Shown: positions 11,751 through 46,346 of the stretch, piece after piece
Layout of the letters: each line of letters starts with the position of its first letter
Numbering within the stretch: the stretch's first letter is position 1
Source: Pseudobdellovibrionaceae bacterium
GTDB lineage: Bacteria > Bdellovibrionota > Bdellovibrionia > Bdellovibrionales > Bdellovibrionaceae
Reading direction: 5' to 3'
Length of the DNA: 64,000 bases
Assembly (NCBI GenBank): GCA_044359815.1
Contig: JBIKLL010000001.1
Location: 32,001 to 96,000 of the forward strand
Translations under genes and position numbers: made by a program
Notes under the pieces: generated by a model
Seen by the model: the letters and a program-made list of their open reading frames with translations, nothing else
What the model was told of the DNA's origin: nothing
Databases searched by the model: none

Positions 11751-11896
11751 GAATTATTTAGTTTTTAATTCTTTAACGTCTTGTGCAGCGAGCGCGCTTT
11801 GCGTATCGCAGGGGTGCGGCACCGCAGGTGAAGCGCTCCGCGAGACGAAATGCGGCCGTTAGCGAAAGACGTTAGAGAGTTAAAAATAGAAAATTC
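11751..11896 (+). repeat. Intergenic hairpin element carrying the X/Y module (short type 2-related)
   Basis: Arms 11751-11782 / 11866-11896 pair with G.T wobbles on +; inside, TGCAGCGAGCGCG opposite GCGGCCGTTAGCG as in the 31.8k and 46k elements; nested GC-rich hairpin. Confidence 0.8.
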
Positions 11897-11900
11897 AAAA

Positions 11901-12044
11901 AAACAGTTTTTTAAGTATCTAAATTTATTTTTACTTAAAAAGGTCCTCTGCGGAGCCTGGATGGCGGGGGCTTGCCCCGAGCAGAGAAGCAGGAGCTGTG
12001 ACCTTTTTAAGTAAAAATAAATTTAGATACTTAAAAAACAGTTT
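11901..12044 (+). repeat. Type 1 long hairpin element, copy 1
   Basis: Perfect 40-bp inverted repeat 11906-11945 / 12000-12039 around 54-nt core CTCTGCGGAGCCTGGATGGCGGGGGCTTGCCCCGAGCAGAGAAGCAGGAGCTGT. Confidence 0.95.
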
Positions 12045-12053
12045 ACAGAGGAT

Positions 12054-12701
12054 TTACCAGAGCCAGCCGACTGACAGCAGAAAGCTCAGATCGTTCCGGG
12101 TCGATTTTTCGATGTCCTCTTGATCTGCGGCTGAATAAAATCCGTTTTCAAAAGTCACTTCAGGTTTTTTGCTATAGCTGCGATACCCCAGCTCGACGGC
12201 CCCCCAGATATTTTCAACAAACAAACCTGCTGCTCCAATGACCGGATTGACGGCAAGTCCCTTACCGATTTGATAATCAGCATCTTGCAGATTCGTGATT
12301 TTTTTAAGCTTGGCACCATTGGTGCTGATCAAGCTGGCTCCGCCGTATAATTTCAAATTAAATTCGTCCCCTAATGGTGCCACTTGCTGTGACCAAAAAT
12401 AAAAATTCCCCCCGATTGAACTGACGGATCCTATTGCTGAAAATCCCAGCGAAAAATGCAGATCCAGATTTTGCAAAATAAAGTACTTAGCGCCGGCTCC
12501 AAAAATCCCATAGCTGGTATTCGCACCACCGCCCAAATCTGTGACAAATCTTTTGGCAGTTTTAATTTCAACAGTTTCTTTTCGAGCCTCGGTTTCTTCA
12601 GGATCTTTGATATCCTGATACCCTGGCAATTGGCAAAAAGCTTTACCCGATGTGAGGGTCAATAATACTGGAACCAAATATAAAGATATTTTTTTAATCA
12701 T
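12054..12701 (-). CDS. Hypothetical secreted protein, probable outer membrane beta-barrel
   Basis: Signal peptide, alternating beta-strand pattern, C-terminal aromatic (SVGWLW). Confidence 0.6.
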   Translation of the reverse strand: MIKKISLYLVPVLLTLTSGKAFCQLPGYQDIKDPEETEARKETVEIKTAKRFVTDLGGGANTSYGIFGAGAKYFILQNLDLHFSLGFSAIGSVSSIGGNFYFWSQQVAPLGDEFNLKLYGGASLISTNGAKLKKITNLQDADYQIGKGLAVNPVIGAAGLFVENIWGAVELGYRSYSKKPEVTFENGFYSAADQEDIEKSTRNDLSFLLSVGWLW

Positions 12702-12737
12702 TTAAAAAGCATAGCGATTGCTCAGAAACTGCGTCAA
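12702..12737 (-). promoter_or_regulatory. Sigma70-type promoter immediately ahead of the start codon (leaderless candidate)
   Basis: TTGACG-18nt-TATGCT-6nt-ATG(12701); no SD. Confidence 0.55.
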
Positions 12738-12777
12738 GCTCCTTGAGTATTGAATTATAAAAAGCTAGTTTTATTAA

Positions 12778-13581
12778 ATGCTGATGATCACAATCCCACA
12801 TTCCGGCGAACAAATCCCAGAAAATGCCAATTGGCTTAAAAAACTGCCCGAAGAAATTTTGATGTGTGACGTGGACCGTTTCGTCGATAGGCTTTATGAA
12901 CCCACGATTCAAAAATTAAATATCCCCTACATCAAAACCCAATGGCACCGTTACGCAGGCGATTTAAATCGATTGGCCGAAGACGTAGATTGCGATTCAG
13001 TTATTGGTAATCCCAATCCCAGTGGCCAATTTTCACGTGGGTTTATTTGGGTCAAAACCACGTTAAATTATAAACTTTTGCCCCAACCGATTTCAGCGAC
13101 TGATCACCAGCAACTGAAAGCTCTGATTTTTGACCCCTTTCATGCACAGATCAAAACGGTGTCGGAAACTTTATCAAAATCCCACAAAAATATTTATCAT
13201 TTGGATTTGCACTCGATGCCATCGGTGGGAACTTCTGAACACCGTGATCCAGGTGAAAAGCGTGCCGATATTGTCGTTAGCGACAGCAAGGGTAAAAGCT
13301 CCTCAAAAGCTTTTGTGGATTTAGTCATTTCCAGTTACAAAAACCAAGGCTTCAACGTGGCATACAATTGGCCCTATTTCGGTGGCCGTTTGACCGAAGC
13401 CTACGGTAAACCAACCCAGGGACATCACACTGTTCAGGTAGAGCTCAACAGAGGCCTTTATATGGATGAAACCAGCAAAAAGTGGCTCGATGGTAAAGCC
13501 TTAGACACTCAAAGCCGGTTATCTAAAGCCTTATCCAGTGTTTATGATGGTTTGAGGATTGCAGATAAGGCCATCATATAG
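12778..13581 (+). CDS. N-formylglutamate amidohydrolase family protein
   Basis: IPHSG, DRFVDRLY, DLNR, DLHSMPS, NWPYFGG, QVELNRGLY. Confidence 0.88.
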   Translation: MLMITIPHSGEQIPENANWLKKLPEEILMCDVDRFVDRLYEPTIQKLNIPYIKTQWHRYAGDLNRLAEDVDCDSVIGNPNPSGQFSRGFIWVKTTLNYKLLPQPISATDHQQLKALIFDPFHAQIKTVSETLSKSHKNIYHLDLHSMPSVGTSEHRDPGEKRADIVVSDSKGKSSSKAFVDLVISSYKNQGFNVAYNWPYFGGRLTEAYGKPTQGHHTVQVELNRGLYMDETSKKWLDGKALDTQSRLSKALSSVYDGLRIADKAII

Positions 13582-13623
13582 AGGGACTTAACAACAAAAG
13601 GTCCCTTAAATAAAGGGATTTAA

Positions 13624-15327
13624 ATGAAGTTGATCTCTGTCCTGGTATTTTTATTAGCTATTCAAAGTGAGGCCAGATTTTTATCTGCAGCTGAGCAATC
13701 GCTATTAGTGTCAGCCGAAAAAGGCGACCTGCAGGGCGTGGTGGATGCTATTAATCAAAAGGCCTCAATAAATGCTGCTGATTTTCATGACCATACGGCA
13801 CTGATGAAGGCTTCAGCCAAGGGGCACCTGGAAATCGTAAAATTACTTATCGAAAAAAGAGCCAATCTGAATCTTAAGGGCCTTGAAAAAGGCGCTGAAT
13901 CAACGTCTCACAAAAGCGACTCAGCTTTAATGATGGCCATTGATAGTGAAAAATACGATGTCGTCAAAGCTTTAGTTTTAGCAGGCGCTAACGTGAACCA
14001 AAAAGACATTATGCAAAGAACAGCCTTAGTAAAACTGATAGACAATTCCACCAATTTAAAACTCAAGAAAAAGATCAGCAAAGAAAAGCTTCTAGAGCTG
14101 GCAAAACTATTTATTGAGCACGGTGCTGATCTGAATTTGGGACGCAAAGAAGTCGTTCGAACAGATAAAAAAGGCAGATCCAAGACCACCATTGAATCAG
14201 AAGTTGAAACACCTTTGATGTTTGCAGCTGAAGGTGGACAGGCTGATTTGGTAGAATATTTGTTATCTCAAGGCGCTGATCCATCAATCAATGTATTGGA
14301 TCCACAAAATAACGACGTTGAAAATGCGATTGAGCTTGCAAAAGAAGCCAGAAAAAATCCTGAAAATAAAAAGTGTAAAATAACCAACACCGAAGCACTT
14401 AATTATTGTGATTACAAAAGGGTTATCCAGCTTTTAAATGACCCATCTTCTGCTGTTGGTGTAATGACACCATTTTTTGATATTCAATTGCTAGAGGCTG
14501 CAGAAAAAGGCAATTTAGCTGATATCGAAAAAGCTCTTCAGCAAGGCGCAAAAATTAATGCCCTGGATGAAGACGACGAAACCGCTTTGTATAAAACAGT
14601 AAAGACAAAAAATCTGCCGGCTGTTAAATTTCTGATTTCAAAAGGCGCTGACGTTAATTTAAAAACCACTCAAAGCGAAACTGCACTGTCTGCAGCTGTG
14701 GTCACTCAAAACTACGATATCATTAAAGCCATTGTTCAAGCCGGCAGTATGGCTGATCTGAAGGATCTGCAATTTAAAACTGCATTGATTGATCTGATAG
14801 ATGACGTTAATAAAGACGGCTACCGTTCATCGACGTTGTCACGAATGAATCAGTTTAATCTGATTCAAATGCTGATCGCTAAGGGCTCTAACCCCGAATA
14901 CGGTGTTAAATCAAAAACCGAAAAGCAAAAGGCAACAGAAGTCGTGATTATGTATTCGACTTTGTATACTGGCTTGATAGCTGCGGCTGATTTAGGAAAT
15001 GCTGATTTAGTCAGATACTTGCTTGCTACTAAAAGCCCCACGGGTCCTGCATTGGCTAATCCTGATGTGATCATCACAGATGACAGTTTGGATGTCTATG
15101 GCAGGGCTCTAGAGGTTGCTAAATACGTGGCCACTGATCCCACTGCTAAGAAAAATTGTAATCCTGGCAAGGCCGTGGCAGCCGGGGTTCACCCTTTGAA
15201 CGATCCTGATAATCAAAAACAATCAGTCAAAAACTACTGTGATTACCAAACTACGATTGATTTGCTGACCCAGGTCACCAAGGGAAAACCATTAGTCAGC
15301 AAATCTATGGAAAACGTCGAAGAGTAG
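13624..15327 (+). CDS. Secreted ankyrin-repeat protein
   Basis: Signal peptide; repeated TALM.A...GH.EIVKLLI..GA.VN ankyrin motifs; two duplicated modules each ending NYCDY. Confidence 0.85.
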   Translation: MKLISVLVFLLAIQSEARFLSAAEQSLLVSAEKGDLQGVVDAINQKASINAADFHDHTALMKASAKGHLEIVKLLIEKRANLNLKGLEKGAESTSHKSDSALMMAIDSEKYDVVKALVLAGANVNQKDIMQRTALVKLIDNSTNLKLKKKISKEKLLELAKLFIEHGADLNLGRKEVVRTDKKGRSKTTIESEVETPLMFAAEGGQADLVEYLLSQGADPSINVLDPQNNDVENAIELAKEARKNPENKKCKITNTEALNYCDYKRVIQLLNDPSSAVGVMTPFFDIQLLEAAEKGNLADIEKALQQGAKINALDEDDETALYKTVKTKNLPAVKFLISKGADVNLKTTQSETALSAAVVTQNYDIIKAIVQAGSMADLKDLQFKTALIDLIDDVNKDGYRSSTLSRMNQFNLIQMLIAKGSNPEYGVKSKTEKQKATEVVIMYSTLYTGLIAAADLGNADLVRYLLATKSPTGPALANPDVIITDDSLDVYGRALEVAKYVATDPTAKKNCNPGKAVAAGVHPLNDPDNQKQSVKNYCDYQTTIDLLTQVTKGKPLVSKSMENVEE

Positions 15328-15330
15328 TCC

Positions 15331-15512
15331 GAAACAGCGCTACCCTAAAAATAATTTCTAAAATCTAAATATTTTAAAGTACTTTAAAAGGTTACAGCAT
15401 CCTGCTTCATCCGCTCGGGCAGAGCCCCCGCCATCCTAGCTCCGCGGAGAACCATTTAAAGCAATTTAAAATATTTAGATTTTAGAAATTATTTTTAGGG
15501 CAGCGCTGTTTC
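15331..15512 (-). repeat. Type 1 long hairpin element, copy 2
   Basis: 63-bp inverted repeat 15331-15393 / 15450-15512 (4 mismatches); minus-strand core CTCCGCGGAGCTAGGATGGCGGGGGCTCTGCCCGAGCGGATGAAGCAGGATGCTGT. Confidence 0.95.
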
Positions 15513-15535
15513 AAACTGCCCTATTCGACGTTACT

Positions 15536-15958
15536 TTAAAACGGGATGTCGTCGTTTTGCTCAAAGCTAGGCTCAGGCCCAAAATCCTGGCTGTAATCAC
15601 CACCAGATTGAGTGGACCTTTCTGAGTTCGCACTTCCTAAAAACTGAACATTGTTAGCAACTATTTCTGTAGAATATTTCTTAACGCCACTGGGATCATC
15701 CCAGCTTCGAGTCTGCAATCGACCCTCAACATAGACTTGTCGCCCCTTAGACAGATGTTTAGCGCAGTTCTCGGCCTGTTTGCCCCACACCACCACACGG
15801 TGCCATTCGGTTTTTTCCTGCTTCTGTCCATCTTTGCTCAACCAAGATTCACTGGTTGCCACTGATAAACGGGCCACAGATTGACCACTGCCGACACTTT
15901 TTAGCTCGGGATCCTGACCTAAACGACCAACGATAATTACTTTGTTAACTCCTGACAT
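15536..15958 (-). CDS. ssb: Single-stranded DNA-binding protein
   Basis: [36 protein letters not shown]-terminal DDIPF; AAGGA SD before ATG 15958. Confidence 0.97.
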
Positions 15959-16060
15959 AATGTCCTTTCCGCCCAACCACACACGGTTGAGTCGCTTTGT
16001 GTTTGTTAAACACTGTCGTGACATAATAAAAGTGTCAAAGGGAAAAAATGTATTTACTGG

Positions 16061-17035
16061 TTACTGCAAAGCCCCAAAATTAGGGACCGATTCCGGACCG
16101 CTGGCGGATAATTTAAACTTAAATCGCGCCCCATCAGCAACAGGTGTTTTGTGCTGTTCAATAAAACTTAAAAACAATTTAGCCCTGTCTTCGAAACTTT
16201 TTTTGACTGTTATGTCGATATCAAAGGAATAACTGCCAGGCATGGGCATAATCCGGCCACCTAAATTCTGAATTTGCATCGACATGCCGCCTTTGATTGT
16301 CCCGGTGATTTCGTCAGCGCCTTTGCCAATCAGCCCTTGTTCAATCTGAAATCTGCCGGCCGATAGACGGCCCTTTAGCTGCAAACTGGAAACTTTAAGT
16401 TCTGGCAGATTCATTGGCCCCATGGGGGTGTTAACATTGCTTGGGGGAATTTCAAATTTCTCGACCTTTAAATCCACTTCCACATCTGGTTGCTCTTTAA
16501 AAGCAAAATCCGCAACGGCTGTGCTTTTTAAATCTAAATTTCCGCGCAAGGGAACCGGCAGATTCAATAATTCTTGCAAATCTTTTAAGGACAATTTCTC
16601 AGCTTCGATGGTGATTTTATTTTTCTCGACTCCATTTTCAGATTTGCCCCCTGAAGACAAACTGATATCCACATTTCCCTTTAAAAAACCCTTAGCATAC
16701 AAAGACCCACCAGGCTTTTGATAAATCAATGCAGATATTGAAGGCGACACGCTGATTTCGCCCACCGTGATGGCAGGGAAAGCCCGAGTTTCGACTGACA
16801 GATTTTCCAGATGTAATCCCATAGGCAAAATATTTATATCCATATGGTCAAACTGAACGTAAACCTGATTCTGGGTCGCTTTTGAAACCTGACTGGCCAC
16901 CAGATCAGACAAATCATCAAAGGGAAACAGTAAAAATAAAAACAGCAGAGTCGACAACAACGCCAAAGCAAATTTGGATTTATTGGACAAACACCACCTG
17001 AGGCCTATTTTTACGTATTCTAAGACCTGAGCCAT
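16061..17035 (-). CDS. gspN: Type II secretion system protein GspN
   Basis: N-terminal TM ending LFPFDDL; last gene of gsp operon. Confidence 0.7.
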   Translation of the reverse strand: MAQVLEYVKIGLRWCLSNKSKFALALLSTLLFLFLLFPFDDLSDLVASQVSKATQNQVYVQFDHMDINILPMGLHLENLSVETRAFPAITVGEISVSPSISALIYQKPGGSLYAKGFLKGNVDISLSSGGKSENGVEKNKITIEAEKLSLKDLQELLNLPVPLRGNLDLKSTAVADFAFKEQPDVEVDLKVEKFEIPPSNVNTPMGPMNLPELKVSSLQLKGRLSAGRFQIEQGLIGKGADEITGTIKGGMSMQIQNLGGRIMPMPGSYSFDIDITVKKSFEDRAKLFLSFIEQHKTPVADGARFKFKLSASGPESVPNFGALQ

Positions 17036-17694
17036 TATTTTTTACCCTTCTTGGGAGGCTCTGGTTCAGGCAAAGGCTCGATAATTTCTGGCACCTTTAA
17101 AACAATTAATCTGTAAATCACATCGTAATAACGTTCGTCCTCGCCGTTGGCGTTCATAATCATGTCTTTCATTTTCACCGAGGCACTGAGGGCCGTTAAC
17201 TGCTGACCCACGTCTATGATTTGCTTTAGGTTCAGTTTATTGACAACGACTTCAATGGTTCCATCAGACAACTCTTGCGGAAATAATCTTGAACCCAGTG
17301 GCACGGTCTCAACTGATTTTATCAAATCCTGCATGACCCGGCTGGCTTGCAGTTCAGTTTGAATCCGACTTTTCAGCGAATCAATAGGCGGAGGCATCGG
17401 AATTTCCGGGACCTCATTGGCTTCTTTGGCTGTTTTTAATAATTCCCTGATCAGACCTCGGCGTGATAAAAAATCTTCCACATTGGTCATAGACTGTGTC
17501 AGGTATCCCCATGGGGATGACAGAAAAATCAAAATAATCAAGACCACTGCAGAAATCGTCACAACTCTTTGCATGCTGGGACTTAAGTTTTCGTATTTGT
17601 CCTTCAGTTGCTGATAGGCTGCAGATTCTTCGGTTCGATCAACTAAAACCTTAAACTGTGATTGTAAATTATCGCGCAGATCTTGAAAATTCAT
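17035..17694 (-). CDS. Type II secretion system GspM-like protein
   Basis: YENLSP..QR followed by single TM and coiled coil; position after gspL. Confidence 0.6.
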   Translation of the reverse strand: MNFQDLRDNLQSQFKVLVDRTEESAAYQQLKDKYENLSPSMQRVVTISAVVLIILIFLSSPWGYLTQSMTNVEDFLSRRGLIRELLKTAKEANEVPEIPMPPPIDSLKSRIQTELQASRVMQDLIKSVETVPLGSRLFPQELSDGTIEVVVNKLNLKQIIDVGQQLTALSASVKMKDMIMNANGEDERYYDVIYRLIVLKVPEIIEPLPEPEPPKKGKK

Positions 17695-19358: not shown

Positions 19359-19376
19359 ATGAAATCCTTTTCAAGT

Positions 19377-24195: not shown

Positions 24196-24198
24196 AAA

Positions 24199-29277: not shown

Positions 29278-29440
29278 AGTTGGTGAACTTAAAATTCAAA
29301 AAACTAAATCTATGATTTTACTAAAAAAGACCGCAGCTCCTGCTTCTCTGCTCGAGCAAGCTCCCGCCGTCCGGGCTCCGCAGAGGGTCTTTTTCAGTAA
29401 AATCATAGATTTAGTTTTTTGAATTTTAAGTTCACCAACT
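29278..29440 (-). repeat. Type 1 long hairpin element, copy 3
   Basis: 55-bp inverted repeat 29278-29332 / 29386-29440 (1 mismatch); minus-strand core CTCTGCGGAGCCCGGACGGCGGGAGCTTGCTCGAGCAGAGAAGCAGGAGCTGC. Confidence 0.95.
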
Positions 29441-29482: not shown

Positions 29483-29986
29483 CTAGAGCGCTAGTTGGTT
29501 TAAATCTTTCCCGGTTAATCGGTAAACGGTCCATTCATCCATGGGTTTTGCTCCCAATGACTTGTAAAAAGCAATGGCTCTTTCGTTCCAATTCAAAACT
29601 GACCAATCCAAACGTGGGCATCCGCTCTGCACAGCAATTTGTGCCAATCTGGCAAACAGATGTTTTCCAATTCCTAGGCTTCGAAACTGCGGCAAGACAA
29701 ATAGGTCTTCCAAATACATCCCAGGCTTTCCCAAAAAAGTTGAAAAGCTATTGAAATAAAGCGCAAACCCAACGCTTTCACCATTTCTGCGCGCCATTAA
29801 AACCTTAGCAAATTTATTTTCACCAAATAAATTTTGCCGCAACTGATCTGGATCCAACTTGACTTCATTTTCTAATTTTTCAAACTCTGCCAATTTATTA
29901 ATAAACAGGATAATGGTGGATAAATCGCTTTCGCTCGCAAATTCAATATTTAAAAGGCTTTTGTCAGACAATTCGATTGGGTTCAT
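29483..29986 (-). CDS. GNAT N-acetyltransferase (diamine/spermidine acetyltransferase-like)
   Basis: LAEFEKL, FSTFLGKPGMYLEDLFV, R..GIG, VLNWN..AI.FY..LGA. Confidence 0.88.
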   Translation of the reverse strand: MNPIELSDKSLLNIEFASESDLSTIILFINKLAEFEKLENEVKLDPDQLRQNLFGENKFAKVLMARRNGESVGFALYFNSFSTFLGKPGMYLEDLFVLPQFRSLGIGKHLFARLAQIAVQSGCPRLDWSVLNWNERAIAFYKSLGAKPMDEWTVYRLTGKDLNQLAL

Positions 29987-30076
29987 TACTAAGTCTATAC
30001 TGGACTTTCTAAAGACCCTGCAAGAAATTATTAATTTGTGATTCAATTCCTAACAAATTCATGGGAAGTTATTATT

Positions 30077-30673
30077 ATGAAAATCTACACAAAAACAGGC
30101 GATGATGGCAGCACCAGTTTATTAAGCGGAAAAAGAGTTTCCAAAGATCATTGGAGACTTCAGATTTACGGAGGCATTGATGAAATCAATAGCTTTCTGG
30201 GATTAGTCACAGCACTTCTGGAGGACAAAGGCCTATCCGCTGGCGGCTTGGAACGTCTTGAAAATTATGTTTATCGGATTCAAGGACAACTGTTTTGCTT
30301 GGGTTCCCATTTTGCTGCTGATGATATTAAAAAAGCTCTTGAACAAAAGATTTTACCTAAATTATCTGATCGTTGGATTACGGATATGGAAAAAGAAATC
30401 GATCTGATGCAAGAGGACCTGGAGCCCTTGAAAAATTTTGTACTGCCAGGGGGCAGCCGATCAGCCGGAGTTCTACATATGACCCGCAGTCTGTGCCGAC
30501 GTGTTGAGAGGGATTTAGTTGCAGCCAAAGACCAACTGGATCAGCAGTTGGATCTTTTTAATTTTTCGCAAAATTATTTAAATCGTCTGAGCGACCTGCT
30601 GTTTGTCGCGGCCAGATATTGCAATCACAAACAAGGCAAAAAAGATAAAATTTGGATCAAAGAAAAGGATTGA
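30077..30673 (+). CDS. Cob(I)alamin adenosyltransferase, PduO type
   Basis: MKIYTKTGDDG, YG.IDE.NS, FVLPGG, R..CRR.ER, YLNRLSD.LF. Confidence 0.92.
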   Translation: MKIYTKTGDDGSTSLLSGKRVSKDHWRLQIYGGIDEINSFLGLVTALLEDKGLSAGGLERLENYVYRIQGQLFCLGSHFAADDIKKALEQKILPKLSDRWITDMEKEIDLMQEDLEPLKNFVLPGGSRSAGVLHMTRSLCRRVERDLVAAKDQLDQQLDLFNFSQNYLNRLSDLLFVAARYCNHKQGKKDKIWIKEKD

Positions 30674-30675
30674 AA

Positions 30676-31803
30676 ATGCGTCTTGAGCTGACCAGTGAAA
30701 AAGACAATTTTAATCTGTGCGAATTTTTCGCAGGCTTTGGCCAGTCAGGGCTAATCGATGTCAAATACCTCAGACATCCCGATTTTTTTGGTCCTTTTAA
30801 AACTTTGTCGGACGAGTATAAAACCTTTTGCTTGCGGGACAACAATGACGAAATCCGAGCCACGGCATCATTTGTATTTCGGAAAGCTTTGATCGATGGC
30901 AAAGTTAAAAAAATTGCGACGGCCACCGACCTGAGGGTGGGACACGACAGAGACGTGATCATTCAGTGGAGCAAGCATTTTTTACCAGTGATGAAAAGTG
31001 TTATGAATGAGCACAAAGTGGATTTTATTTTTTCATCCATCAATTTGTCAGATCCTTTGTTTATGTCGACTTTTGTTCGCCCCAGGACAGCTAAACGACC
31101 CATGCCCAGATATTTTTTGTACCGAAAATTTAATTTGGTTTCCATACATGGCAGATACCCCTTAGCAAATAAAAAACTGGCTTCGATAAAAGTCGAACAC
31201 GCTACTGATGCAACGCTGGGTGAGCTCGCCCAATATGTGAAAAAACGCAGCCAGTACCGTCCTTTTGCTTCCGTGTGGGACGAAGAAAGCCTGCGCCAGA
31301 AGATTTCCAGACTGCCAGGTATGAATATCGAAGACATGCTGATCGCCAGATCTTCACGCGGTGAAATCTTGGGCTGCTTGGGTTACTGGAATCCACTGAA
31401 TGTGCAAAGCATAGTTCCATTGTCTTATTCTTTGAGAGCTCATAATTTCAGACAGATACTAAAATTTCTTTGGATGTTTGGATACACTCGCAGACTGACA
31501 AAACCCGTGGCCTCAACAGGGGTTGAGCGCCCTTTGGAATTCAAATATGTCTTAAACCTGCATTCTGACAATGAAGACGTTTTTGAAAGCCTGCTGTTTG
31601 AAGCCTTTAATTCCATCAGCAAAAGGGAATTTTTGTTGTATGCCCACTGCGAACACGATTACAGATTGTTGCCCCCGCTTGGTTGGGTTTCCGCCAGCAT
31701 ACCTTATGCTATGTACACAGTGGTTGGACCCGATCAAGAAATGCCTGATTTTTTAAACCCATCGATCGCTGTAAATCCCGAAGTCGAATCTCTTTGGATT
31801 TAA
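30676..31803 (+). CDS. Hypothetical protein, probable tandem GNAT-fold
   Basis: Long ORF coupled to pduO; Y.R.PDFF and DLRV motifs. Confidence 0.5.
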   Translation: MRLELTSEKDNFNLCEFFAGFGQSGLIDVKYLRHPDFFGPFKTLSDEYKTFCLRDNNDEIRATASFVFRKALIDGKVKKIATATDLRVGHDRDVIIQWSKHFLPVMKSVMNEHKVDFIFSSINLSDPLFMSTFVRPRTAKRPMPRYFLYRKFNLVSIHGRYPLANKKLASIKVEHATDATLGELAQYVKKRSQYRPFASVWDEESLRQKISRLPGMNIEDMLIARSSRGEILGCLGYWNPLNVQSIVPLSYSLRAHNFRQILKFLWMFGYTRRLTKPVASTGVERPLEFKYVLNLHSDNEDVFESLLFEAFNSISKREFLLYAHCEHDYRLLPPLGWVSASIPYAMYTVVGPDQEMPDFLNPSIAVNPEVESLWI

Positions 31804-32227
31804 AAACTGCTATATGACCCACCTGGCTTCGGCTAATTTGAATTTTAAAAAAATATTTCTATGATTTCACATCTTGTGAATACATCCAGCGAGCGCGACG
31901 TTTAATTTACCGCCGCATATCTCGTGTTACGTAAATGCAAAGATAATTTTTTTCACTATTTTTAGACACTCGCTAACGGCCGCGGGCTCATCTCTCGTAT
32001 TGAGTCATTAAATAAAAGCAATTTTTTTGCTTTTATTTAATGACTCAACACCAGATATGCCCCGCGCGCTCGCTGCATGTGTCTAAAAACAGTAAAAACA
32101 AATTATTTTTGCATTTACGCAATACGAGAGATGAGCTTGCGGCCGTTAGCGGGTATTCTCAAGGTGTGAAATCATAGAAATATTTTTTTAAAATTCAAAT
32201 TAGCCGAAGCCAAGTGGGCAGTTTTTA
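31801..32227. repeat. Type 2 rod-like palindromic element, copy 1
   Basis: Outer 66-bp IR 31818-31883 / 32153-32218 (3 mismatches), middle IR ~31925-31969 / 32079-32124, apical IR 32000-32021 / 32027-32048, separated by X/Y modules; outermost TAAAAACTGC/GCAGTTTTTA. Confidence 0.95.
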
Positions 32228-33334
32228 AAAATTAGCTCCAAAATCCAAATGATTTCTTTTGTAATCCCCAGTGCTTTGCGCATCAATATTGGTTTTTTGA
32301 TCAAACACAGATAGGGCCACATAGGATTTGGCACTCAGTTTATAACTGACTGAGGCCACGTAGCCCTTGGCAGAGGTATTGCCTTTAGCAAAGTCTGCAT
32401 CGGTAAACAGTCCCACAACAGAATCTTTTTCGATTTCTTGCTGTGAAAAATGCAAACCCCATTTGTCGATATTAAAAACCAATCCGTACGAGGTAGCTAC
32501 TGAATAGCTTAAAGCCTTAGTGTTTTCATTCATCTCATAAAATAATCCGATTTCGTAGTCTTCAGGCTTAAACTTAAGCTCAAACATTTTCTGCGAAATC
32601 ACAAACTCTGTAGGATAGTTTCCTGATGAATCAAAAGTGTTGTTTCCAGCTGTGGCTGTGGTCGCTCCTGAAACTAAATCCGATGGAGCGGTATTTTTAA
32701 TACCTACAAATTCGTACTGGCCAAAACCAAACATAACCGAATAAAACCCCTGCTTGAGAGTGTACAAAATCTGTCCCCCATTTATATCGTTGTCAGTTTG
32801 CTCGTTTCCGTTAGTGCTGTCGTAGTTTTCTCTGATTTTAAAGGTTGCTCCGTTCATCGCAAGTTCGTGTTCATTTTCAAACTTAACAAAATATTTTGCA
32901 GCAAACCCCTCAAAGGAAATATCCCGGTCAAACAGCATTTGATTTTTACCCGCAAAATAAAACGGACCTGGCTGCTTACCCAATAACAAATGCAAATCAC
33001 CAATGGCCTCGTAGTCAGCAAAAGCCTGATCTAACCCAATTGTGCGCTTAGGCATTCCCGGCGCATTGCGATCACCCAGGGTCTGATTGCTGCTGACTGC
33101 CTTTGTGCCCGTAGAGATTCTAAAGTTTGCCTTTAGATTCTCAGTGACTTCAGCCCCAACTCCTAAGCGAGCCATCAGCTGCTGAGAATTCTGCTGTTTG
33201 TTGGTTCCTACAGTTTCAGTTAAAAATCTGTATCTCAAATCACCATTGATTACAGGCTCAGCATAAACAGATAACGGGATAAACAAGGGTGTTAAAATCA
33301 ATGTCAGCAAAATTTTTAATTGAGCAGTTTGCAT
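32225..33334 (-). CDS. Putative porin
   Basis: Signal peptide, GDLRYR, ARLG, SSNQTLG, LDQAF, LFD.DISFEG, C-terminal Phe. Confidence 0.78.
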   Translation of the reverse strand: MQTAQLKILLTLILTPLFIPLSVYAEPVINGDLRYRFLTETVGTNKQQNSQQLMARLGVGAEVTENLKANFRISTGTKAVSSNQTLGDRNAPGMPKRTIGLDQAFADYEAIGDLHLLLGKQPGPFYFAGKNQMLFDRDISFEGFAAKYFVKFENEHELAMNGATFKIRENYDSTNGNEQTDNDINGGQILYTLKQGFYSVMFGFGQYEFVGIKNTAPSDLVSGATTATAGNNTFDSSGNYPTEFVISQKMFELKFKPEDYEIGLFYEMNENTKALSYSVATSYGLVFNIDKWGLHFSQQEIEKDSVVGLFTDADFAKGNTSAKGYVASVSYKLSAKSYVALSVFDQKTNIDAQSTGDYKRNHLDFGANF

Positions 33335-35646: not shown

Positions 35647-35648
35647 AA

Positions 35649-39672: not shown

Positions 39673-39694
39673 TTTTCTATTTTTGAAGTGCAAA

Positions 39695-40621: not shown

Positions 40622-40649
40622 ACCTGCTCCTGAAAATCAATTTTGAATA

Positions 40650-42467
40650 TTACAGCTTACGGCCAAATTCTTTTTCAATAAAATTAAAATCCCATTCAAT
40701 CCAAACGGGTCTGCCGTGGGGACAATAGCTTGATCCTTGAAATCGATCCATCTCCTTTAACAGAGCCTGCATTTCTTGCAGACTCATTGAATGCCCAGCT
40801 CTGATCACAGAATGACAAGACATCGTCGCAAAAATTTCCGACAAAGTTTTTTCAAATTCAAAACTGACACCAAAGGATTTAATCTTCTCGACGGCTTCGG
40901 CCATCACCTTGGGAACAATTCCATCAAACAACAATGACGGAATCGCCGTCACAGCCAAACTGGAAGGCCCCAATATTTCAAAAAACAAACCCAATCTGTT
41001 AAATGATTTTTGATGCTCGGCTAAAACTTCACAATCGCCCGTATCTAAATCAACCACAATGGGCATCAGCAATTGCTGCGATTCCATATTCTGCAACCGC
41101 CACCCCTGCCAGAGCTTTTCATAACCAACCCGTTCATGGGCAGCATGCTGATCAATCAAAAACATTTTTTCAGCCGATTGCGCCAAAATATAAGTCAAAT
41201 GAACCTGTCCGATGACCTGCAGTTTTGACCAGAACTCACCATCAACATTTGATTCAGAATTTACTTTATCTGGAGTGGCGTTAGGCCTTAATTCTTCCAG
41301 ACTTCTAATGTCAAAATGAGCACTGACATTATTTTTTGGGTCACTGTTGAAAGCTTGAAAGCTGACTTTTTTAATTTGAGTGTCATTAATTCCCCAATCC
41401 ATTTGCTGATGTGACTCAACAGGTTTGGGTTCACCAGGAACAAAGCTTTCTGCTTTATTCTGTTGGATTTTGCGATCGGTATTGTCAGCTTTGGGTGATC
41501 TTAGGTGCGAGCTTATTAGGTGATACAGTCTTCTGAAAACAGCTTGAGGATCTTGAAACTTCACCACAGACTTAGTCGGATGCACGTTAACATCAATGGA
41601 CTCAGGATCAACTTCGATCCAAACCACACACTGAGGGTATTCACCTTGCATTAGAAAAGTTCGAAACCCTTCAAAAATAGCCGCCATCAAGGACTTATCC
41701 TGAATCCACCGATTCTGAGCAAACAACCAGATATTTTTAGAGGTCTTTGCTGCAAATCTTGGCTCAGCGATCACGGCTTCGATTTTAATTCCTTGCTCTG
41801 AATGTGTCAGGGTTATGGGTTGCTGCAGATCCAAAACCTGCTTGACCCTCTCAGATCTGGATTCAGCTGATTTCCAAAAATACTCAAGCCGCCCTTCAAT
41901 CAACAGTTTAAATTCCACTTCTGGGTGGGACAGGGCTGTGGCCTTGATCACCTGTTTCATTTGCTGAATTTCAGCGCTAGCAGATTTTAAAAATTTTAAT
42001 CTGGCTGGAACATTTTCAAATAAATTATTAATTTCTACAACGGTGCCTGGCACAGTTGATGTGGACTTGATATTTGATTGCGAGCCAAAATCGCTATCTA
42101 ACTGAAAACCTGAATCAGCATCTTGTGTTCTGGTTTTCAATCTGACTTTTGAAACACTGCTGATGCTTGACAGAGCCTCTCCTCTAAAACCAAAGGTCTT
42201 CAGCTTCCACAAATCTTCTGAGTTTTGAATTTTACTGGTGGAATGCCTGGACAAACACCTTTGCAAATCTTCAGATTCCATACCGATACCATCATCGGTT
42301 ACTTTGACAGATCTTCCCCCATCAGTGATTTCGATAATGATTTTTTGAGCCTCGGCATCCAGTGAGTTTTCGATCAGTTCCTTCAGCATATGAGAAGGCC
42401 TCTCGACAACTTCCCCGGCTGCGATCTGATCAATTACTGATGACTCTAATTGATGAATTTTCCCCAC
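40650..42467 (-). CDS. mutL: DNA mismatch repair protein MutL
   Basis: IAAGEVVERP, GFRGEAL, DVNVHPTK, DQHAAHER, CPHGRP; GTG start inferred. Confidence 0.95.
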   Translation of the reverse strand: MGKIHQLESSVIDQIAAGEVVERPSHMLKELIENSLDAEAQKIIIEITDGGRSVKVTDDGIGMESEDLQRCLSRHSTSKIQNSEDLWKLKTFGFRGEALSSISSVSKVRLKTRTQDADSGFQLDSDFGSQSNIKSTSTVPGTVVEINNLFENVPARLKFLKSASAEIQQMKQVIKATALSHPEVEFKLLIEGRLEYFWKSAESRSERVKQVLDLQQPITLTHSEQGIKIEAVIAEPRFAAKTSKNIWLFAQNRWIQDKSLMAAIFEGFRTFLMQGEYPQCVVWIEVDPESIDVNVHPTKSVVKFQDPQAVFRRLYHLISSHLRSPKADNTDRKIQQNKAESFVPGEPKPVESHQQMDWGINDTQIKKVSFQAFNSDPKNNVSAHFDIRSLEELRPNATPDKVNSESNVDGEFWSKLQVIGQVHLTYILAQSAEKMFLIDQHAAHERVGYEKLWQGWRLQNMESQQLLMPIVVDLDTGDCEVLAEHQKSFNRLGLFFEILGPSSLAVTAIPSLLFDGIVPKVMAEAVEKIKSFGVSFEFEKTLSEIFATMSCHSVIRAGHSMSLQEMQALLKEMDRFQGSSYCPHGRPVWIEWDFNFIEKEFGRKL

Positions 42468-42490
42468 AGACTCTTTATTAATAGATATTA

Positions 42491-43384
42491 CTAAAACGGC
42501 AATTGCAGCGAGGTTGCTAGGCCGTAATAATGCATTTGCTCCCAAAAATACTGGATTTCGCCGCGCAACGACACGCTGCCCAACTTAACTCCAACACCCA
42601 AATTAAATGCGGCTCCAAACGCCATATCATCCATTGAATAATTTTTGTCACGTCCATTAACCGCCATTTCAACATTAAACTTTGAATACTTAAATTGAGG
42701 GCCAAATCCAAAAAATGACATCGTGTCTTTTGACTGGGGAAACACCGTAGAAAATAAAAAATTGCCTATAAAAATCCATCCCCCAGCGGGCTTTCTCGTC
42801 CCCAGTTCGTAATACTTTGGAGCTCCTGGATGATACAAAAAATTTAATTCTGTCGTCATTTCACCTTCAACAACAATGTCGGGCCCCGACATTTTCAGAC
42901 CGTAAAATCCCAGCCCAGCTGTCGGCTTAAGTGTCATGGTTTCTTCACGGTAATTCAGGTAGCTGTATTGCAATCCAATAAATCGGGTCAGCGTATAAGG
43001 CCTTTTGGAATTTCTGTCTTTGGTTTCACTCTTTTCCTGAGCCTTGGCGACTTCCTCAGGTTGATTTTTGGTTTCTTTTTTCCGCTTGGGTAAATTTAAG
43101 GGTTTGATATCCGTGTCGGCAATATACCCAATGACTTTGTTACTGACTTTGATTCGATAAAAAGCGCCGTTAAAAATCTTAGATGAAATCTCAAACTCAC
43201 GTCCTGCATTGACATAGGTTAATACAGGGGCATCAAAATCGGCATTCTTGTAAACAGCAGCTCCATTATTGACTATTTTTGCCTTATATACGGCAAACTT
43301 TTTTGATTGTGCGCTGACAGCGCTGCCAATAAAAATCAAACTCAAAAATAAAAATGTTAAACTATTTTGAATTTTAAATGCCAT
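42491..43384 (-). CDS. Secreted protein with SH3b-like N-domain and probable beta-barrel C-domain
   Basis: Signal peptide; VYK.ADFDAPV...FYRI....GYIAD; beta-strand-rich C-terminus ending in Phe. Confidence 0.6.
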   Translation of the reverse strand: MAFKIQNSLTFLFLSLIFIGSAVSAQSKKFAVYKAKIVNNGAAVYKNADFDAPVLTYVNAGREFEISSKIFNGAFYRIKVSNKVIGYIADTDIKPLNLPKRKKETKNQPEEVAKAQEKSETKDRNSKRPYTLTRFIGLQYSYLNYREETMTLKPTAGLGFYGLKMSGPDIVVEGEMTTELNFLYHPGAPKYYELGTRKPAGGWIFIGNFLFSTVFPQSKDTMSFFGFGPQFKYSKFNVEMAVNGRDKNYSMDDMAFGAAFNLGVGVKLGSVSLRGEIQYFWEQMHYYGLATSLQLPF

Positions 43385-44091
43385 ACACGCACAAGGGCCT
43401 CAATCACAATTTTTAGGGACATTTTGCTTTTTCCAAGTCGTCTTTCCTCAAAGACGATAGGTGTCTCGGCACCTTTGAAACCAGCTTTTAAAGCGCGGTA
43501 TTTAAGTTCGATTTGAAAACTGTAACCATTGGATTGAATTTCATTTATGCCAATTTTATTTAAAACCTTTGTTTGCCAAGCATTAAATCCCCCGGTCCAA
43601 TCATTGATGGGAAATCCCAAAATCAATCTGGAATAAATTCCACCGGCTTTCGAGATCAGCTTTCTAAACAACCCCCAATTCACAGTGCTACCACCCTGAA
43701 CATATCTGGATCCAATTGCAAAATCATTCTCAGTCGCAGCAGCAACGACTTTACCTAAATCCATGGGTCTGTGTGAAAAGTCCGCGTCCATTTCAACTAA
43801 AATTTCAAATCCATTTTTAACACCCCATTCAAAACCTGCCACATAGGCTCTACCCAAGCCGTCTTTCTTAGCTCGCGCCAATAAATGAACCTGAGGATCT
43901 TGCAGATTTTTAACCAGCTGACCCGTCCCATCCGGCGAATTATCATCAACAACTAAAATACTGTAGGATGGTTGCAGTTTTCTGATTTCTGCAATGATCA
44001 GTAGAATGTTTTCTTTTTCATTATAAGTTGGGATGATAATTAATGTTTTCACTCTGATTGACAGTGGATCACGAGAATCTGAAATTTTCAA
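43357..44091 (-). CDS. Polyprenol monophosphomannose synthase-like GT2 glycosyltransferase
   Basis: IIPTYNE, VVDDNSPDGT, EMDADFSH, GSRY, GYSFQIE. Confidence 0.9.
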   Translation of the reverse strand: MKISDSRDPLSIRVKTLIIIPTYNEKENILLIIAEIRKLQPSYSILVVDDNSPDGTGQLVKNLQDPQVHLLARAKKDGLGRAYVAGFEWGVKNGFEILVEMDADFSHRPMDLGKVVAAATENDFAIGSRYVQGGSTVNWGLFRKLISKAGGIYSRLILGFPINDWTGGFNAWQTKVLNKIGINEIQSNGYSFQIELKYRALKAGFKGAETPIVFEERRLGKSKMSLKIVIEALVRVWHLKFKIV

Positions 44092-44568
44092 TCAGACTTG
44101 GCGCGAAATCATCGAACCTTTTTGAGTTTTCTTTGATTTTTCTAAAACTTCTTTTCTGTGTTTAGAAATTGTTGGTAGCTTTAGCGGATTCGCTAAAATT
44201 GTTTCTGGCCTTGCTTTACGCTCATCTAACTTTAATTTGACTTTTACAGCTGCTTTTTCTGGTTCCTTTAAATACAAAATGGGATCAAATCCACAGTTTT
44301 TACAGACCATCGAAATCCGCCATCTCATGCTGACAAATAACTCTGACACCAAGGCAAACACCGCCCAAATGATCAATCCCATGGGATGAATTTCTCTGAA
44401 AAGCACATACATAATGCTCACAGCCCCCAAAAAAGAAACTGCAAAATTCACCGCTGATACTGACTTTTTTTTGTAGATAGTTCGTTCTGATTTGCAAAAG
44501 GCGCAATAGCATCGTGTCCGATTCAAAACACTGTCAAACACACTAATCAAACTGCCTTTTTTTGCCAT
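44092..44568 (-). CDS. Hypothetical membrane protein with CxxC pairs flanking two TM helices
   Basis: CAFC ... 2 TM ... CKNCGFDP. Confidence 0.65.
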   Translation of the reverse strand: MAKKGSLISVFDSVLNRTRCYCAFCKSERTIYKKKSVSAVNFAVSFLGAVSIMYVLFREIHPMGLIIWAVFALVSELFVSMRWRISMVCKNCGFDPILYLKEPEKAAVKVKLKLDERKARPETILANPLKLPTISKHRKEVLEKSKKTQKGSMISRQV

Positions 44569-44649
44569 CTCAATTTATTGTAGCAAAGATTTGGTCTAGG
44601 ATTCCATTGCTGATTTTGTTGATGGGGCTTTTTTTGTTACAATCTTGGT

Positions 44650-45303
44650 ATGAGTACATACAAGTCCACAATTAAAAAAGCGATTCTGATTCTGATGACT
44701 GCTTTCAGCTGGACCCAGGTCCAGGCGCAGGATTACCAAGAGCAAAGTTACGATGACCTTCTGAATGAATTAACCAGCAGAAGCAAACGCACTCAATCTT
44801 ACTATGCCAATGAATCATTAGACTCGATCAAGATTCATGTGGGCTTTGGAGCACTGGCTTCAGCCAACAAAATAAAAATGCTAGATAAAACTTTTATCAA
44901 AGAACAATCGGGATTTCAGCTTTCGATGGGTTTGGATTTGTTTTCACAGAACTGGGCCACAGAAATCGTGATAAGAAACTTTGGTCAAACCACTTCGGCT
45001 TCCGAAATCAGAAGTCTTCGCGAATATGATTTAACAGTTCTGTTCAAAGACAAACTGGAAAACCAAATGGGATACAGATTGGGAATGGGATTGGGAACTC
45101 GTTATTTACGCATATCTGACAATCTCAATAATATTTTCGTGGACAGCTCCACACCCACCGGAGTGCTCTTTATTGGAGCAGAAGCCTTTCTGAGTCAGTA
45201 TTTAAGCTTCATTTTTGATTTAGGCACTCGAACTGCCTTAATTTCAGACACAGTCGATAAGAATTCTATTGATTTAGGTCTGAGTCTTGTAACAAACTTT
45301 TAA
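44650..45303 (+). CDS. Hypothetical outer membrane beta-barrel protein
   Basis: Signal peptide, beta-strand pattern, terminal Phe. Confidence 0.6.
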   Translation: MSTYKSTIKKAILILMTAFSWTQVQAQDYQEQSYDDLLNELTSRSKRTQSYYANESLDSIKIHVGFGALASANKIKMLDKTFIKEQSGFQLSMGLDLFSQNWATEIVIRNFGQTTSASEIRSLREYDLTVLFKDKLENQMGYRLGMGLGTRYLRISDNLNNIFVDSSTPTGVLFIGAEAFLSQYLSFIFDLGTRTALISDTVDKNSIDLGLSLVTNF

Positions 45304-45309
45304 TAATCT

Positions 45310-45906
45310 ATGGATTTAAGCTTTATTAAAAACAACGACATCAGGGACACCTGCGAGTCCATCCTCAAATTTTTGAGACATCCCATAGAACAAGTAAAAT
45401 TTATTCCCGATTGGTCATGGCGAAGGGTCTTGATCAGTATTTGTGTTTTATCAGCCTTATCAGGTTTTTTAAAAAACTTAATTATCGGTAGCTCTCTGAT
45501 TGCTGTCTTGAGCATCATCTCCAATCCCATTTTGACTTTATTGATGATTTTAACTTCTTGTGTTTTTTTCTATTACAGTCTGCAGGTTTTCCTGAATAAA
45601 ACAGTGGATTTTAAAAAGCTTTTTGTTCTGTTGTTTTTTGCAAACCTGCCTCTGATATTTTTTCAAGTGCTTGCAGAGGTCATCGCCCCTGTTACTTTGA
45701 TTGGTCTGCTTTTTTCATGCTTTATCACCATTGTTGGAATCCACGAAAACTTTGGTGTCGAGAAAAAATGGGCCTTCAGGATAGTAGGAGCCGCCTACGG
45801 AGTCTTGTTTGCGGTTTGGATAGCTGGCCAGATCAAATCGTTACGGCTTGAAGAAAAGTTTGAATCCAAAATCGACAAAGCCCCTATGGTGGAACTCAAC
45901 AAATAA
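45310..45906 (+). CDS. Yip1-like membrane protein
   Basis: FL.HP start, five hydrophobic helices. Confidence 0.55.
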   Translation: MDLSFIKNNDIRDTCESILKFLRHPIEQVKFIPDWSWRRVLISICVLSALSGFLKNLIIGSSLIAVLSIISNPILTLLMILTSCVFFYYSLQVFLNKTVDFKKLFVLLFFANLPLIFFQVLAEVIAPVTLIGLLFSCFITIVGIHENFGVEKKWAFRIVGAAYGVLFAVWIAGQIKSLRLEEKFESKIDKAPMVELNK

Positions 45907-45931
45907 AATTCTGTCGTAAAAACAATAACTC

Positions 45932-46346
45932 GCCTGCCTGGCTGTGCGGTTATTTTCTGAAACCAGATTTTGTATTTTCAAATGTTTCTTTATTTTATAC
46001 CTTGTGAATACTTGCTAACGGCCGCAAGCTCATCTCTCGTATTGCATAAATACAAAGATAATTTGTTTTTACTGTTTTTAGACACATGCAGCGAGCGTGC
46101 GGGGCATATCTGGTGTTGAGTCATTTTATAAAAGCAAAAAGATTGCTTTTATAAAATGACTCAACACGAGAGATGAGCCCGCGGCCGTTAGCGAGTGTCT
46201 AAAAATAGTGAAAAAAATTATCTTTTCATTTACGCATCACGAGATATGCCATGCGCGCTCGCAAATGTATTCACAAGGTATAAAATAAAGAAACATTTGA
46301 AAATACAAAATCTGGTTTCAGAAAATAACCGCACAGCCAAGTGGGC
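45932..46346. repeat. Type 2 rod-like palindromic element, copy 2 (inverted relative to copy 1)
   Basis: Perfect 73-bp IR 45939-46011 / 46267-46339; interior closely matches reverse complement of 31884-32152; right end GCCAAGTGGGC shared with copy 1. Confidence 0.95.

Follow-up and report, generated by a model that had tools for sequence, protein, structure and literature searches.

Introduction

Short non-coding palindromic hairpin repeats that occur in tens to hundreds of copies at the 3' ends of genes, with sequences specific to the lineage, are known from enterobacteria and Pseudomonas as the REP, BIME and REPIN elements that accompany RAYT proteins. Miniature inverted-repeat transposable elements (MITEs) such as Correia/NEMIS, ERIC, RUP and BOX are non-autonomous dispersed repeats of 100-400 bp that are foldable and intergenic. 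Structured RNAs of the Rfam type, including the long-stem 6S and Y RNAs, are defined by covariation and exhibit conserved loops and junctions, variable paired helices, and G:U pairs on one strand. In this work, a family of long hairpin elements that resembles all three was analyzed. Six of these elements are located in a 64,000-nt window (the whole stretch of DNA under analysis, G000:C124:32001-96000) from the draft genome of a Pseudobdellovibrionaceae bacterium (G000; 2.95 Mb, 125 contigs, 41% G+C, 91% completeness). Each element consists of two arms that pair to form a long stem and a core, or tip. Type-2 elements carry one kind of core, and types 1 and 3 share a second module.

The hairpins differ from each of the described systems. 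In a REPIN the paired arms are conserved and the loop varies; here the reverse is observed, with 62.8% identity between copies for the arms and 75.8% for the cores. The type-2 tip is, in addition, conserved across genera at inherited loci. Membership in the REPIN class was rejected, since neither conserved arms nor a cognate RAYT gene flanked by the elements was found. Assignment as a MITE was rejected as well, since the hairpins lack conserved terminal inverted repeats and are not regularly flanked by target duplications. The original prediction had called the pattern the reverse of a MITE. The outermost arm bases differ in every copy. Relative to known structured RNA families, the closing stem is unusual in being near-perfect over 24-94 bp, the element is repeated 62 times in one genome, and there is no match in Rfam.

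The reading favored here, with a confidence only slightly above even, is that the elements are long stems of free sequence carrying a conserved asymmetric tip, that the tip works as a folded strand of one orientation, and that the whole has been multiplied in this genome. The conserved entity would be the tip, which is preserved across copies and species. For type 2, the tip would be active in only one orientation, as a single strand that folds, and this strand is most likely an RNA whose transcription takes place at the ends of genes. Both the type-2 element and the second module have proliferated in this genome, to a total well above 100 copies. The copies are tolerated at gene 3' ends and almost nowhere else; there they probably serve, or are tolerated, as the 3'-end hairpins of RNA. 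The finding combines two known kinds of entity, a structured RNA motif and an intergenic palindromic repeat.

Results and Discussion

Fold and Covariation of the Type-2 Tip

The consensus fold of the type-2 tip was obtained from an alignment of 46 local copies and 4 foreign copies (those from other genomes). It contains, in order, the stem P1, a 4-bp helix (CYGC/GCRG), a hairpin GCC-NGGAN-GGC, a variable hairpin, and a hairpin RGC-NGGAN-GCY. For these copies, which are related by descent, 95.7% of the cells pair on the consensus fold versus 82.6% in shuffles, and both sides change in 20 of 28 pairs; none of 500 shuffles reaches any of the measures. Pairing drops to 34-48% when the partners are slid by 1-3 columns.

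The same helices were inspected in 30 foreign matches from the genomes of 29 relatives (alignment A2, which was fitted to the covariance model and so leans toward the model structure). All four Watson-Crick combinations occur at the variable pair of the 4-bp helix (the N in CUC-N-GC and its partner). Six different paired forms are found for the stem of the first GGA hairpin, and GGA is retained in the first loop of 28 copies. The conservation of the unpaired parts of the tip is nevertheless plain in this alignment. Compensatory helix changes across lineages, the hallmark of a structured RNA, are thereby indicated. A structured RNA had been offered originally as an alternative to a mobile hairpin, and it is supported both by this covariation and by the strand-specific wobble signature described below. 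From these comparisons, the type-2 tip appears to be an old, previously undescribed structured motif of this bacterial family and beyond rather than a private repeat.

A search of the window against Rfam (Rfam 15) returned no match to the hairpins at the gathering score. Relaxing the search to E values of up to 10 added nothing beyond generic hairpin matches to microRNA precursors, all of them below threshold. The suggestion that the family has no described counterpart is consistent with this outcome, since no Rfam family was found at threshold. The sole match at the gathering score in the window is a tRNA gene at 59338-59420 (RF00005, 57.7 bits). No description of these elements was found in the literature on Bdellovibrio repeats, hairpins, non-coding RNA and small RNA, a survey that had most subscription journals outside its coverage. 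Eight attack-phase small RNAs are listed by Karunker 2013 (PMC3627812); their coordinates do not coincide with the model matches in one relative that resembles the laboratory strain (G171), if the genome coordinates are shared.

The two GGA loops are reminiscent of the CsrA-sequestering RNAs of the CsrB/RsmZ type, in which GGA motifs are also presented in short hairpin loops. CsrA recognizes GGA-containing hairpin loops, and the CsrA of B. bacteriovorus is functional with very little known of its targets, according to a 2026 paper (PMC13443453). The type-2 tip might then be a decoy or binding module for CsrA, with two GGA-loop hairpins mounted on a long stem. Several loop GGA motifs and a csrA gene (G000:C116:45828-45986) do occur together in this genome, as they would in a CsrB/RsmZ-like system, and the NGGAN sequence forms the loops of two short hairpins, the first of which is the one so well preserved in relatives; binding of CsrA itself is putative.

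The elements differ from CsrB and RsmZ in that only two GGA loops are present per element, sequence similarity is absent, and csrA is paired with fliW. These two genes (76-aa and 183-aa frames, respectively) are adjacent on the same strand at G000:C116:45179-45986 (L129 / L294). In the csrA-fliW arrangement the known antagonist is a protein and not an RNA. Moreover, six local copies are without both GGA hairpins, 13 are without the second, and a GGA in a five-base loop is a short motif. The decoy explanation is considered improbable on these grounds.

Distribution among Relatives and Inherited Loci

Whole-element BLAST searches of 40 relatives yielded chance-level matches only. When a 76-nt core was used as the query against 400 genomes of the phylum, the matches were short; five of those read looked like chance, and the sixth was real. 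The latter is found in the closed genome of a member of another genus (G135), where a homologous tip is carried on GC-rich arms and every arm mismatch is G:T on the sense strand of the tip. A degenerate 18-mer of the tip was uninformative as a query, since the matches listed (at least 120 stretches) came mostly from other phyla, many of them of high GC content such as actinomycetes.

The covariance model of the type-2 element (R1) matched 50 of 151 genomes of the same family, distributed over 18 of 41 genera, with 1-12 matches per genome outside G000. Matches were found in 29 of 32 genomes of genus g9 and in 0 of 33 of g3. In an even sample of the phylum, 13 of 151 genomes were matched, four other families included, and the tip is kept in the sole extra-family match inspected (G122, family f6). 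The stems at the 29 foreign loci extend 24-94 bp.

The prpD/prpB site is occupied in 10 species of genus g9. The left arms at this site are 64% identical on average and the tips 82%, and 29-44 of the 49 stem positions pair. Because the stems diverge and yet pair, the pattern of varying arms and a kept tip arises here through compensatory change at an inherited locus, with no transposition. The genes prpD and prpB are also adjacent in the genome studied here, where a type-2 hairpin starts 6 nt after prpB with its tip antisense to the operon, as in g9. A second inherited site is next to dnaX and accounts for six of the 29 foreign loci. In most relatives the type-2 element appears to be a low-copy, vertically inherited locus with a stem that evolves by compensatory change.

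Hairpins are also found grouped. Directly after prpB in this genome is a cluster (G000:C14:12451-13081) composed of a type-2 hairpin, a truncated type-1 unit and a full type-1 hairpin. In G135, two type-2-like hairpins in opposite orientation are located ~400 bp apart between convergent open reading frames (ORFs) of 325 and 329 aa (L036 1478-2016). Hairpin pairs at this spacing are present in G161, G171 and G225.

Copy Number and Placement in the Genome

Type-2 copies were collected using an iterated nhmmer search with a 64-nt type-2 core, which identified 62 cores in this genome. The arms are 35-82 nt in length for 55 of the 62 copies and <35 nt for the other seven, one of which is cut by a contig end. 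The second module is represented by 52 full units and 124 partial matches to its hidden Markov model. Of the full units, 10 have a GC-rich interior and belong to type 1; the other 42 are the inner units of type 3, in which the central hairpin is AT-rich. Type-3 matches of at least 100 nt are distributed over 52 of the 125 contigs and are often at contig ends, so the genome-wide copy counts are lower bounds. All inverted repeats with arms of at least 30 nt amount to 237 pairs at 158 loci, or 39.8 kb in total, and these numbers include the unrelated repeat family that flanks the RAYT-like gene (see below).

The placement of these loci was determined using a crude, ORF-based gene set (2716 ORFs). 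The 158 long-palindrome loci are found in convergent (90), tandem (47) and divergent (6) spacers and at contig ends (15), and none is inside an ORF; convergent spacers make up 427 of 2591 genome-wide. Almost all of the long palindromes are at gene 3' ends. For the 62 type-2 copies the corresponding numbers are 34 convergent, 20 tandem, 2 divergent and 6 at contig ends.

The local type-2 elements resemble two-way intrinsic terminators in their position between convergent genes (34 of the 62 copies) and in outline, with an A-run, a GC clamp, the structured loop, a second GC clamp and a T-run. This outline reads A5-GGTC...GACC-T5. The elements differ from such terminators in that the type-2 loop is a conserved structure of 54 nt and the stems extend 40-80 bp past the clamp. 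In types 1 and 3 the polarity is reversed, with the T-run preceding the stem and the A-run following it, and the GC-rich relatives are without the T-run. A role in terminating or stabilizing transcripts may be envisioned.

With 15 of the long-palindrome loci at contig ends and many contigs broken inside type-3 copies, the palindromes could in principle be artefacts of short-read assembly. The same kind of hairpin is, however, carried by closed single-contig genomes of relatives, an independent metagenome assembly contains type-3 copies at the same sites, and RNA-library contigs span one hairpin in a relative. The probability of an artefact is therefore regarded as negligible. In practical terms, it is the repeats that break short-read assemblies of this lineage.

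Strand Bias and Transcription

Mismatches in the arms were scored on the strand that carries the tip in the sense orientation. The 29 foreign copies (1169 pairs) contain 29 G:T mismatches, no A:C mismatches and 43 others. The sense strand folds better in 24 of these 29 copies (p = 7e-5) and in 38 of 55 local type-2 copies (p = 6e-4). In the arms of type 1 there are 14 G:T mismatches versus 2 A:C, and the sense strand is the more stable in 9 of 9. G:U pairs thus appear to be tolerated, and A:C pairs not, on one strand in the relatives and in the type-1 arms, and more weakly in the local type-2 arms (35 versus 20). A bias toward G:T alone on one strand argues that the fold of one single strand is under selection, and that strand is most likely RNA.

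Contigs assembled from RNA libraries (4 runs of 4 studies) run continuously over prpD and the g9 element. Contigs X5 and X6 stop at 1661 and 1731, respectively, which is beyond the hairpin, and no conclusion was drawn from these ends. A 43-nt stretch in the prpD/prpB spacer of G171 (L118 1837-1879) recurs on unrelated RNA contigs from all four runs with different flanks, and has the appearance of another short dispersed repeat.

Several observations weigh against an RNA-like tip on a selected stem, in addition to the lean of alignment A2 toward its model. The foreign G:T counts are not independent, because 10 of the 29 loci are one orthologous site (prpD/prpB) and 6 are another (dnaX); an estimated 15 or so separate G:T events remain, and no event in the opposite direction was seen. 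Of all mismatches, G:T is the least disruptive in single-stranded DNA as well, and the signature is therefore no proof of RNA. RNA libraries can contain DNA, and the contigs that cover the g9 element carry no information on strand or ends. The favored strand at the prp locus is antisense to the operon, and a promoter for it was not found at this locus. An inward promoter (TTGNNN-N15-18-TANNNT) is present in only 6 of 55 arms and so is not a general feature. Of the 20 type-2 cores in tandem contexts, 10 are sense and 10 antisense to the upstream gene, a split that is a poor fit to an RNA dependent on read-through. The arm mismatches of this genome are nearly unbiased. Both GGA hairpins are missing in 6 of the 62 type-2 copies, and yet the arms of these copies are 49-70 nt in length and 98-100% paired. 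Finally, selection alone appears to be a weak explanation for perfect stems of 60-80 bp.

Divergence and Maintenance of the Stems

The contrast between differing arms and conserved cores, originally noticed in the window, was borne out genome-wide in 55 type-2 copies. The arms within a copy are complementary at a mean of 97.0%. The inner 40 nt of the arm have a mean identity between copies of 62.8%, compared with 52.5% for shuffled arms, and the identity to the nearest neighbor has a mean of 76.7% and a maximum of 92.5%. The corresponding values for the cores are 75.8% between copies and 92.8% to the nearest neighbor. The 99th percentile of shuffled arms is exceeded by 45.7% of arm pairs, which identifies the arms as diverged homologues and not as unrelated DNA. 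Similarity of the arms is independent of that of the cores (rho = 0.04), and close arms can bear different core variants. The type-2 consensus is TTTAAAAAGGTC-core-GACCTTTTTAA, with the innermost arm TTTAAAAAGGTC well conserved; the conserved part of the arm is limited to the innermost AAAAAGGTC.

The outer 12 nt differ in all 55 listed copies, and no flanking direct repeats or target duplications were seen at these copies when the flanks were read. An origin of the arms as copies of neighboring host DNA is disfavored, since the inner 40 nt are homologous between copies; at most the outermost, copy-specific bases could be host-derived. Among the 237 long palindromes, 21 have loops of <40 nt, and these provided one candidate for an arm palindrome with no core. 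This candidate (G000:C58:44894-44968) is a perfect 33-bp palindrome with a 9-nt loop and arms like those of the type-2 family, and could be an empty or deleted derivative. With only one such candidate, the cores do not seem simply to land in a pre-existing family of arms.

Had the arms merely decayed once copied, a divergence of 23% or more from the nearest copy should have produced mismatches well in excess of 3%. For most changes in one arm there must therefore have been a matching change in the other. Quasipalindrome template-switch mutation, described in E. coli, converts imperfect inverted repeats to perfect ones in one step and would give perfect stems such as those seen locally. The stems of this genome may be kept perfect mainly by template switching from arm to arm at the DNA level, the mechanism proposed originally, with selection acting on the tip only. 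Pairing within a copy (97%) exceeds identity to the nearest other copy (77%), and some of the differences between close arms are transversions that occur on both arms. The leftover mismatches in the type-2 arms of this genome (G:T 35, A:C 20, other 39; p = 0.058) resemble a raw mutation spectrum, with 55 of transition type and 39 of transversion type. The arms are perfect in the six copies that have no GGA hairpins, and in AT-rich relatives with several copies the arms of 30-94 bp contain 0-1 mismatch. The mismatches in the type-3 outer arms (G:T 41 versus A:C 45) and middle stems (53 versus 66) are almost unbiased as well. A strong G:T bias is found within the conserved modules only, at 121 versus 29 in the inner unit, and it is reversed in the outer unit of opposite orientation (22 versus 40); the type-1 arms (14 versus 2) exhibit the bias too.

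Template switching does not account for everything that was observed. It is a mutational process and not a family of elements, and it leaves the asymmetric tips and the wobble bias of the relatives unexplained. In the GC-rich relatives, where the architecture is also maintained, the mismatches are G:U only, as expected for selection on the fold and not for copying. The tip, moreover, would tend to lose its asymmetry through template switching, and selection is therefore needed in addition. An account in which arm correction does most of the work is a serious contender, with a probability somewhat below even. The G:U-only mismatches of the relatives at inherited single-copy loci indicate selection on the fold, and the near-unbiased local mismatches leave room for DNA-level correction. 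Together with the perfect arms of the copies lacking GGA hairpins and the near-perfect arms of the AT-rich multi-copy relatives, they suggest that in proliferating lineages the copying of arm from arm adds to selection.

A still bolder combination may be formulated, in which the type-2 tip is a phylum-wide structured RNA that binds CsrA as a long-stem decoy and is present here as a 62-copy family with stems kept perfect by hairpin-templated DNA correction. We assign it a low probability, slightly below that of the CsrA decoy taken by itself. If it were true, an RNA gene would behave like a mobile element.

Hairpin Elements of the Window

All six hairpin elements were confirmed at the positions first claimed for them, by reading of the sequence and by an inverted-repeat search. 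The search provided five inverted repeats, and no further arms of at least 40 nt at 89% complementarity or better were found in the 64-kb window. The loci lie between convergent genes in four of five cases and downstream of a gene in the fifth, as predicted and in agreement with the ORF list.

The first locus is between ORFs 10914-11672 (+) and 12054-12701 (-) and contains two elements. The type-2 hairpin at 11901-12044 (+ strand) has arms of 45 nt (11901-11945 and 12000-12044; 98% complementary, 44/45 paired) and a structured core at 11944-12001 in the sense orientation on the + strand. Its fold has a free energy of -73.2 kcal/mol (z = -12.1), and none of 200 shuffles is as good. The type-1 hairpin at 11751-11896 (+ strand) contains the module from TGCAGCGAGCGCGC to GCGGCCGTTAGCGA with a core at ~11779-11869 and short, G:U-rich arms, in which only 19 of 21 pairs are Watson-Crick. 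As RNA, the + strand folds at -73.1 kcal/mol (z = -8.95) and the - strand at -47.6; the + strand is the more stable because many of the pairs are G:U.

The longest direct repeat across the flanks of the type-1 element is the 12-bp sequence ACAGTTTTTTAA. The first copy is at 11713-11724 (+ strand), and the second copy, at 11903-11914 (+ strand), doubles as the start of the left arm of the type-2 hairpin. The two copies bracket the type-1 element plus ~30 nt of extra sequence. An outer palindrome (11693-12061, without strand) has arms of 31 nt at 11693-11723 and 12031-12061 (81%) and encloses both elements; the left arm of the type-2 hairpin was thus formerly longer and is now interrupted by the type-1 element.

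The second type-2 hairpin (15321-15522, - strand) has arms of 73 nt at 15321-15393 and 15450-15522 (89% complementary) and a core at 15392-15451 in the sense orientation on the - strand. It is located between ORFs 13624-15327 (+) and 15536-16024 (-), and its left arm starts within the last codons of the former. The third (29278-29440, - strand) has arms of 55 nt at 29278-29332 and 29386-29440 (98% complementary, 54/55 paired) and a core at 29332-29386, again in the sense orientation on the - strand. This locus is the one that is not flanked by convergent genes; it is 43 nt downstream of ORF 29483-30046 (-).

The two remaining elements are type-3 composites. The first (31801-32227, - strand) is between ORFs 30652-31803 (+) and 32225-33334 (-). 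Its outer arms (31818-31883 and 32153-32218; 66 nt, 95% complementary) enclose an outer module, which has one orientation. Further in are an AT-rich stem, then the inner module (31965-32079), which is in the sense orientation on the - strand, and finally a hairpin at the center. The second (45924-46354, + strand), between ORFs 45310-45906 (+) and 46360-46803 (-), has the same nested architecture, with arms of 88 nt at 45924-46011 and 46267-46354 (93% complementary) and an inner module at 46085-46199 in the sense orientation on the + strand. The arm words said to be shared between the types were found at 29310 and 31859.

Second Module and Turnover

The module common to types 1 and 3 begins with TGCAGCGAGCGYGC and ends with GCGGCCGTTAGCGA. 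These shared ends, together with the independence of arm similarity from core type (rho = 0.04), fit the proposal of one modular family. Type 3 is nested; its outer unit carries an AT-rich stem and an inner unit of opposite orientation in place of the central hairpin. The model of this module (R2) matched 2 of 151 genomes including this one, and the foreign match is weak and resembles the type-1 interior only. The second module is, as judged from these matches, nearly specific to this lineage.

Direct repeats of at least 12 bp flank 2 of the 10 type-1 copies, with 12 bp for the copy in the window and 21 bp for one other. Two or more type-1 copies are inside outer palindromes. Three metagenome contigs from an independent assembly represent an organism 87-96% identical in the flanks. 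Two of the contigs have type-3 copies at the same sites as in this genome. The third contig is near-identical to this genome over ~160 aligned columns, which comprise the end of the gene, the outer arm and the outer module, but its interior stem and inner unit are different over their whole length. The arms can thus stay constant when an interior is exchanged.

The original prediction had offered a mobile hairpin as one reading of the elements. Amplification (62 type-2 copies versus 1-12 in relatives), a nested type-1 element between 12-bp repeats, and a swapped interior lend partial support to this reading; a mechanism of transposition and an empty site were not obtained.

Candidate Mobilizing Enzymes

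Inverted copies of AAAAGAGACCGTACGACTTTTTCTGTCTACAG flank a RAYT/IS200-like Y1 gene (G000:C8:9479-10286; L017 ~1212-2019) that encodes 211 aa and contains HFH and YxxxQ-type motifs. The repeat that flanks this ORF (G000:C8:9501-10136) contains GAGACCGTACGAC and differs from the hairpin families. It is present in 41 copies when one mismatch is allowed, with ~18 inverted pairs elsewhere at spacings of 100-350 bp. The RAYT-like gene and its own repeat are a classical REPIN/RAYT-like system, separate from the hairpins.

The genome contains nine Y1-type matches, of which eight are copies of a divergent 206-aa HUH ORF (L018-L024 and G000:C8:23373-24056) with a weak match to Y1_Tnp (E ~5e-5) and an HLH motif. 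Conservation among these eight copies is limited to the ORF and ~70 bp upstream of it, and no end hairpins were seen. The nearest long palindrome is at least 4.6 kb from each copy, or is absent from the contig altogether. Directly upstream of one copy (L018, G000:C23, ORF 201-821) is a tandem array of the 9-nt unit AACTATCTA. A TnpB domain was not found in the genome (91% complete). Classification as an element derived from IS200/IS605 and associated with palindromes was rejected, since there is no TnpB and the Y1 ORFs have no conserved hairpin ends. The analogy to RAYT-mobilized repeats that had been drawn originally is not supported, since the RAYT-like gene is flanked by another repeat family and the Y1 copies are at least 4.6 kb from long palindromes.

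These results bear on the possibility that the elements are purely selfish, non-autonomous DNA hairpins, with the tip as the site of an HUH/Y1 transposase, movement as folded single-stranded DNA, and a bias that marks the active DNA strand. Amplification to 62 and >50 copies in one lineage would be accommodated, as would the nested elements, the 12-bp and 21-bp flanking direct repeats at 2 of 10 type-1 copies, the interior swapped at an orthologous site, and the presence of nine Y1-type matches including the eight HUH copies. The conserved mismatches in the helices of the modules may also be likened to the imperfect hairpins read by the transposases of IS200/IS605.

The enzymes and the hairpins are, however, not found together; the eight HUH copies have no long palindrome nearby and little conservation beyond the ORF, the typical RAYT-like gene is flanked by a different repeat, and TnpB was not detected. 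Conserved termini and target duplications were not seen at the 55 type-2 copies. In genus g9 the element occupies the same loci in 10 species and its tip is strongly conserved, which is unexpected for the binding site of a parasite. Selfish DNA alone is considered rather unlikely, and a folded tip under selection on a freely diverging stem is preferred.

Conclusions

The type-2 tip provides a concrete conserved, RNA-like motif in a group of predatory bacteria for which only a handful of non-coding RNAs have been reported. The targets of CsrA in this bacterial group are said to be almost unknown (PMC13443453). The very long near-perfect stems are a natural system for the question of how bacteria maintain long palindromes, by selection or by arm-to-arm correction. 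One architecture, with a conserved asymmetric tip on a free but paired stem, is either a quiet inherited locus or a proliferating repeat, depending on the genome. This shared architecture links structured RNAs with intergenic palindromic repeats, which are usually treated apart.

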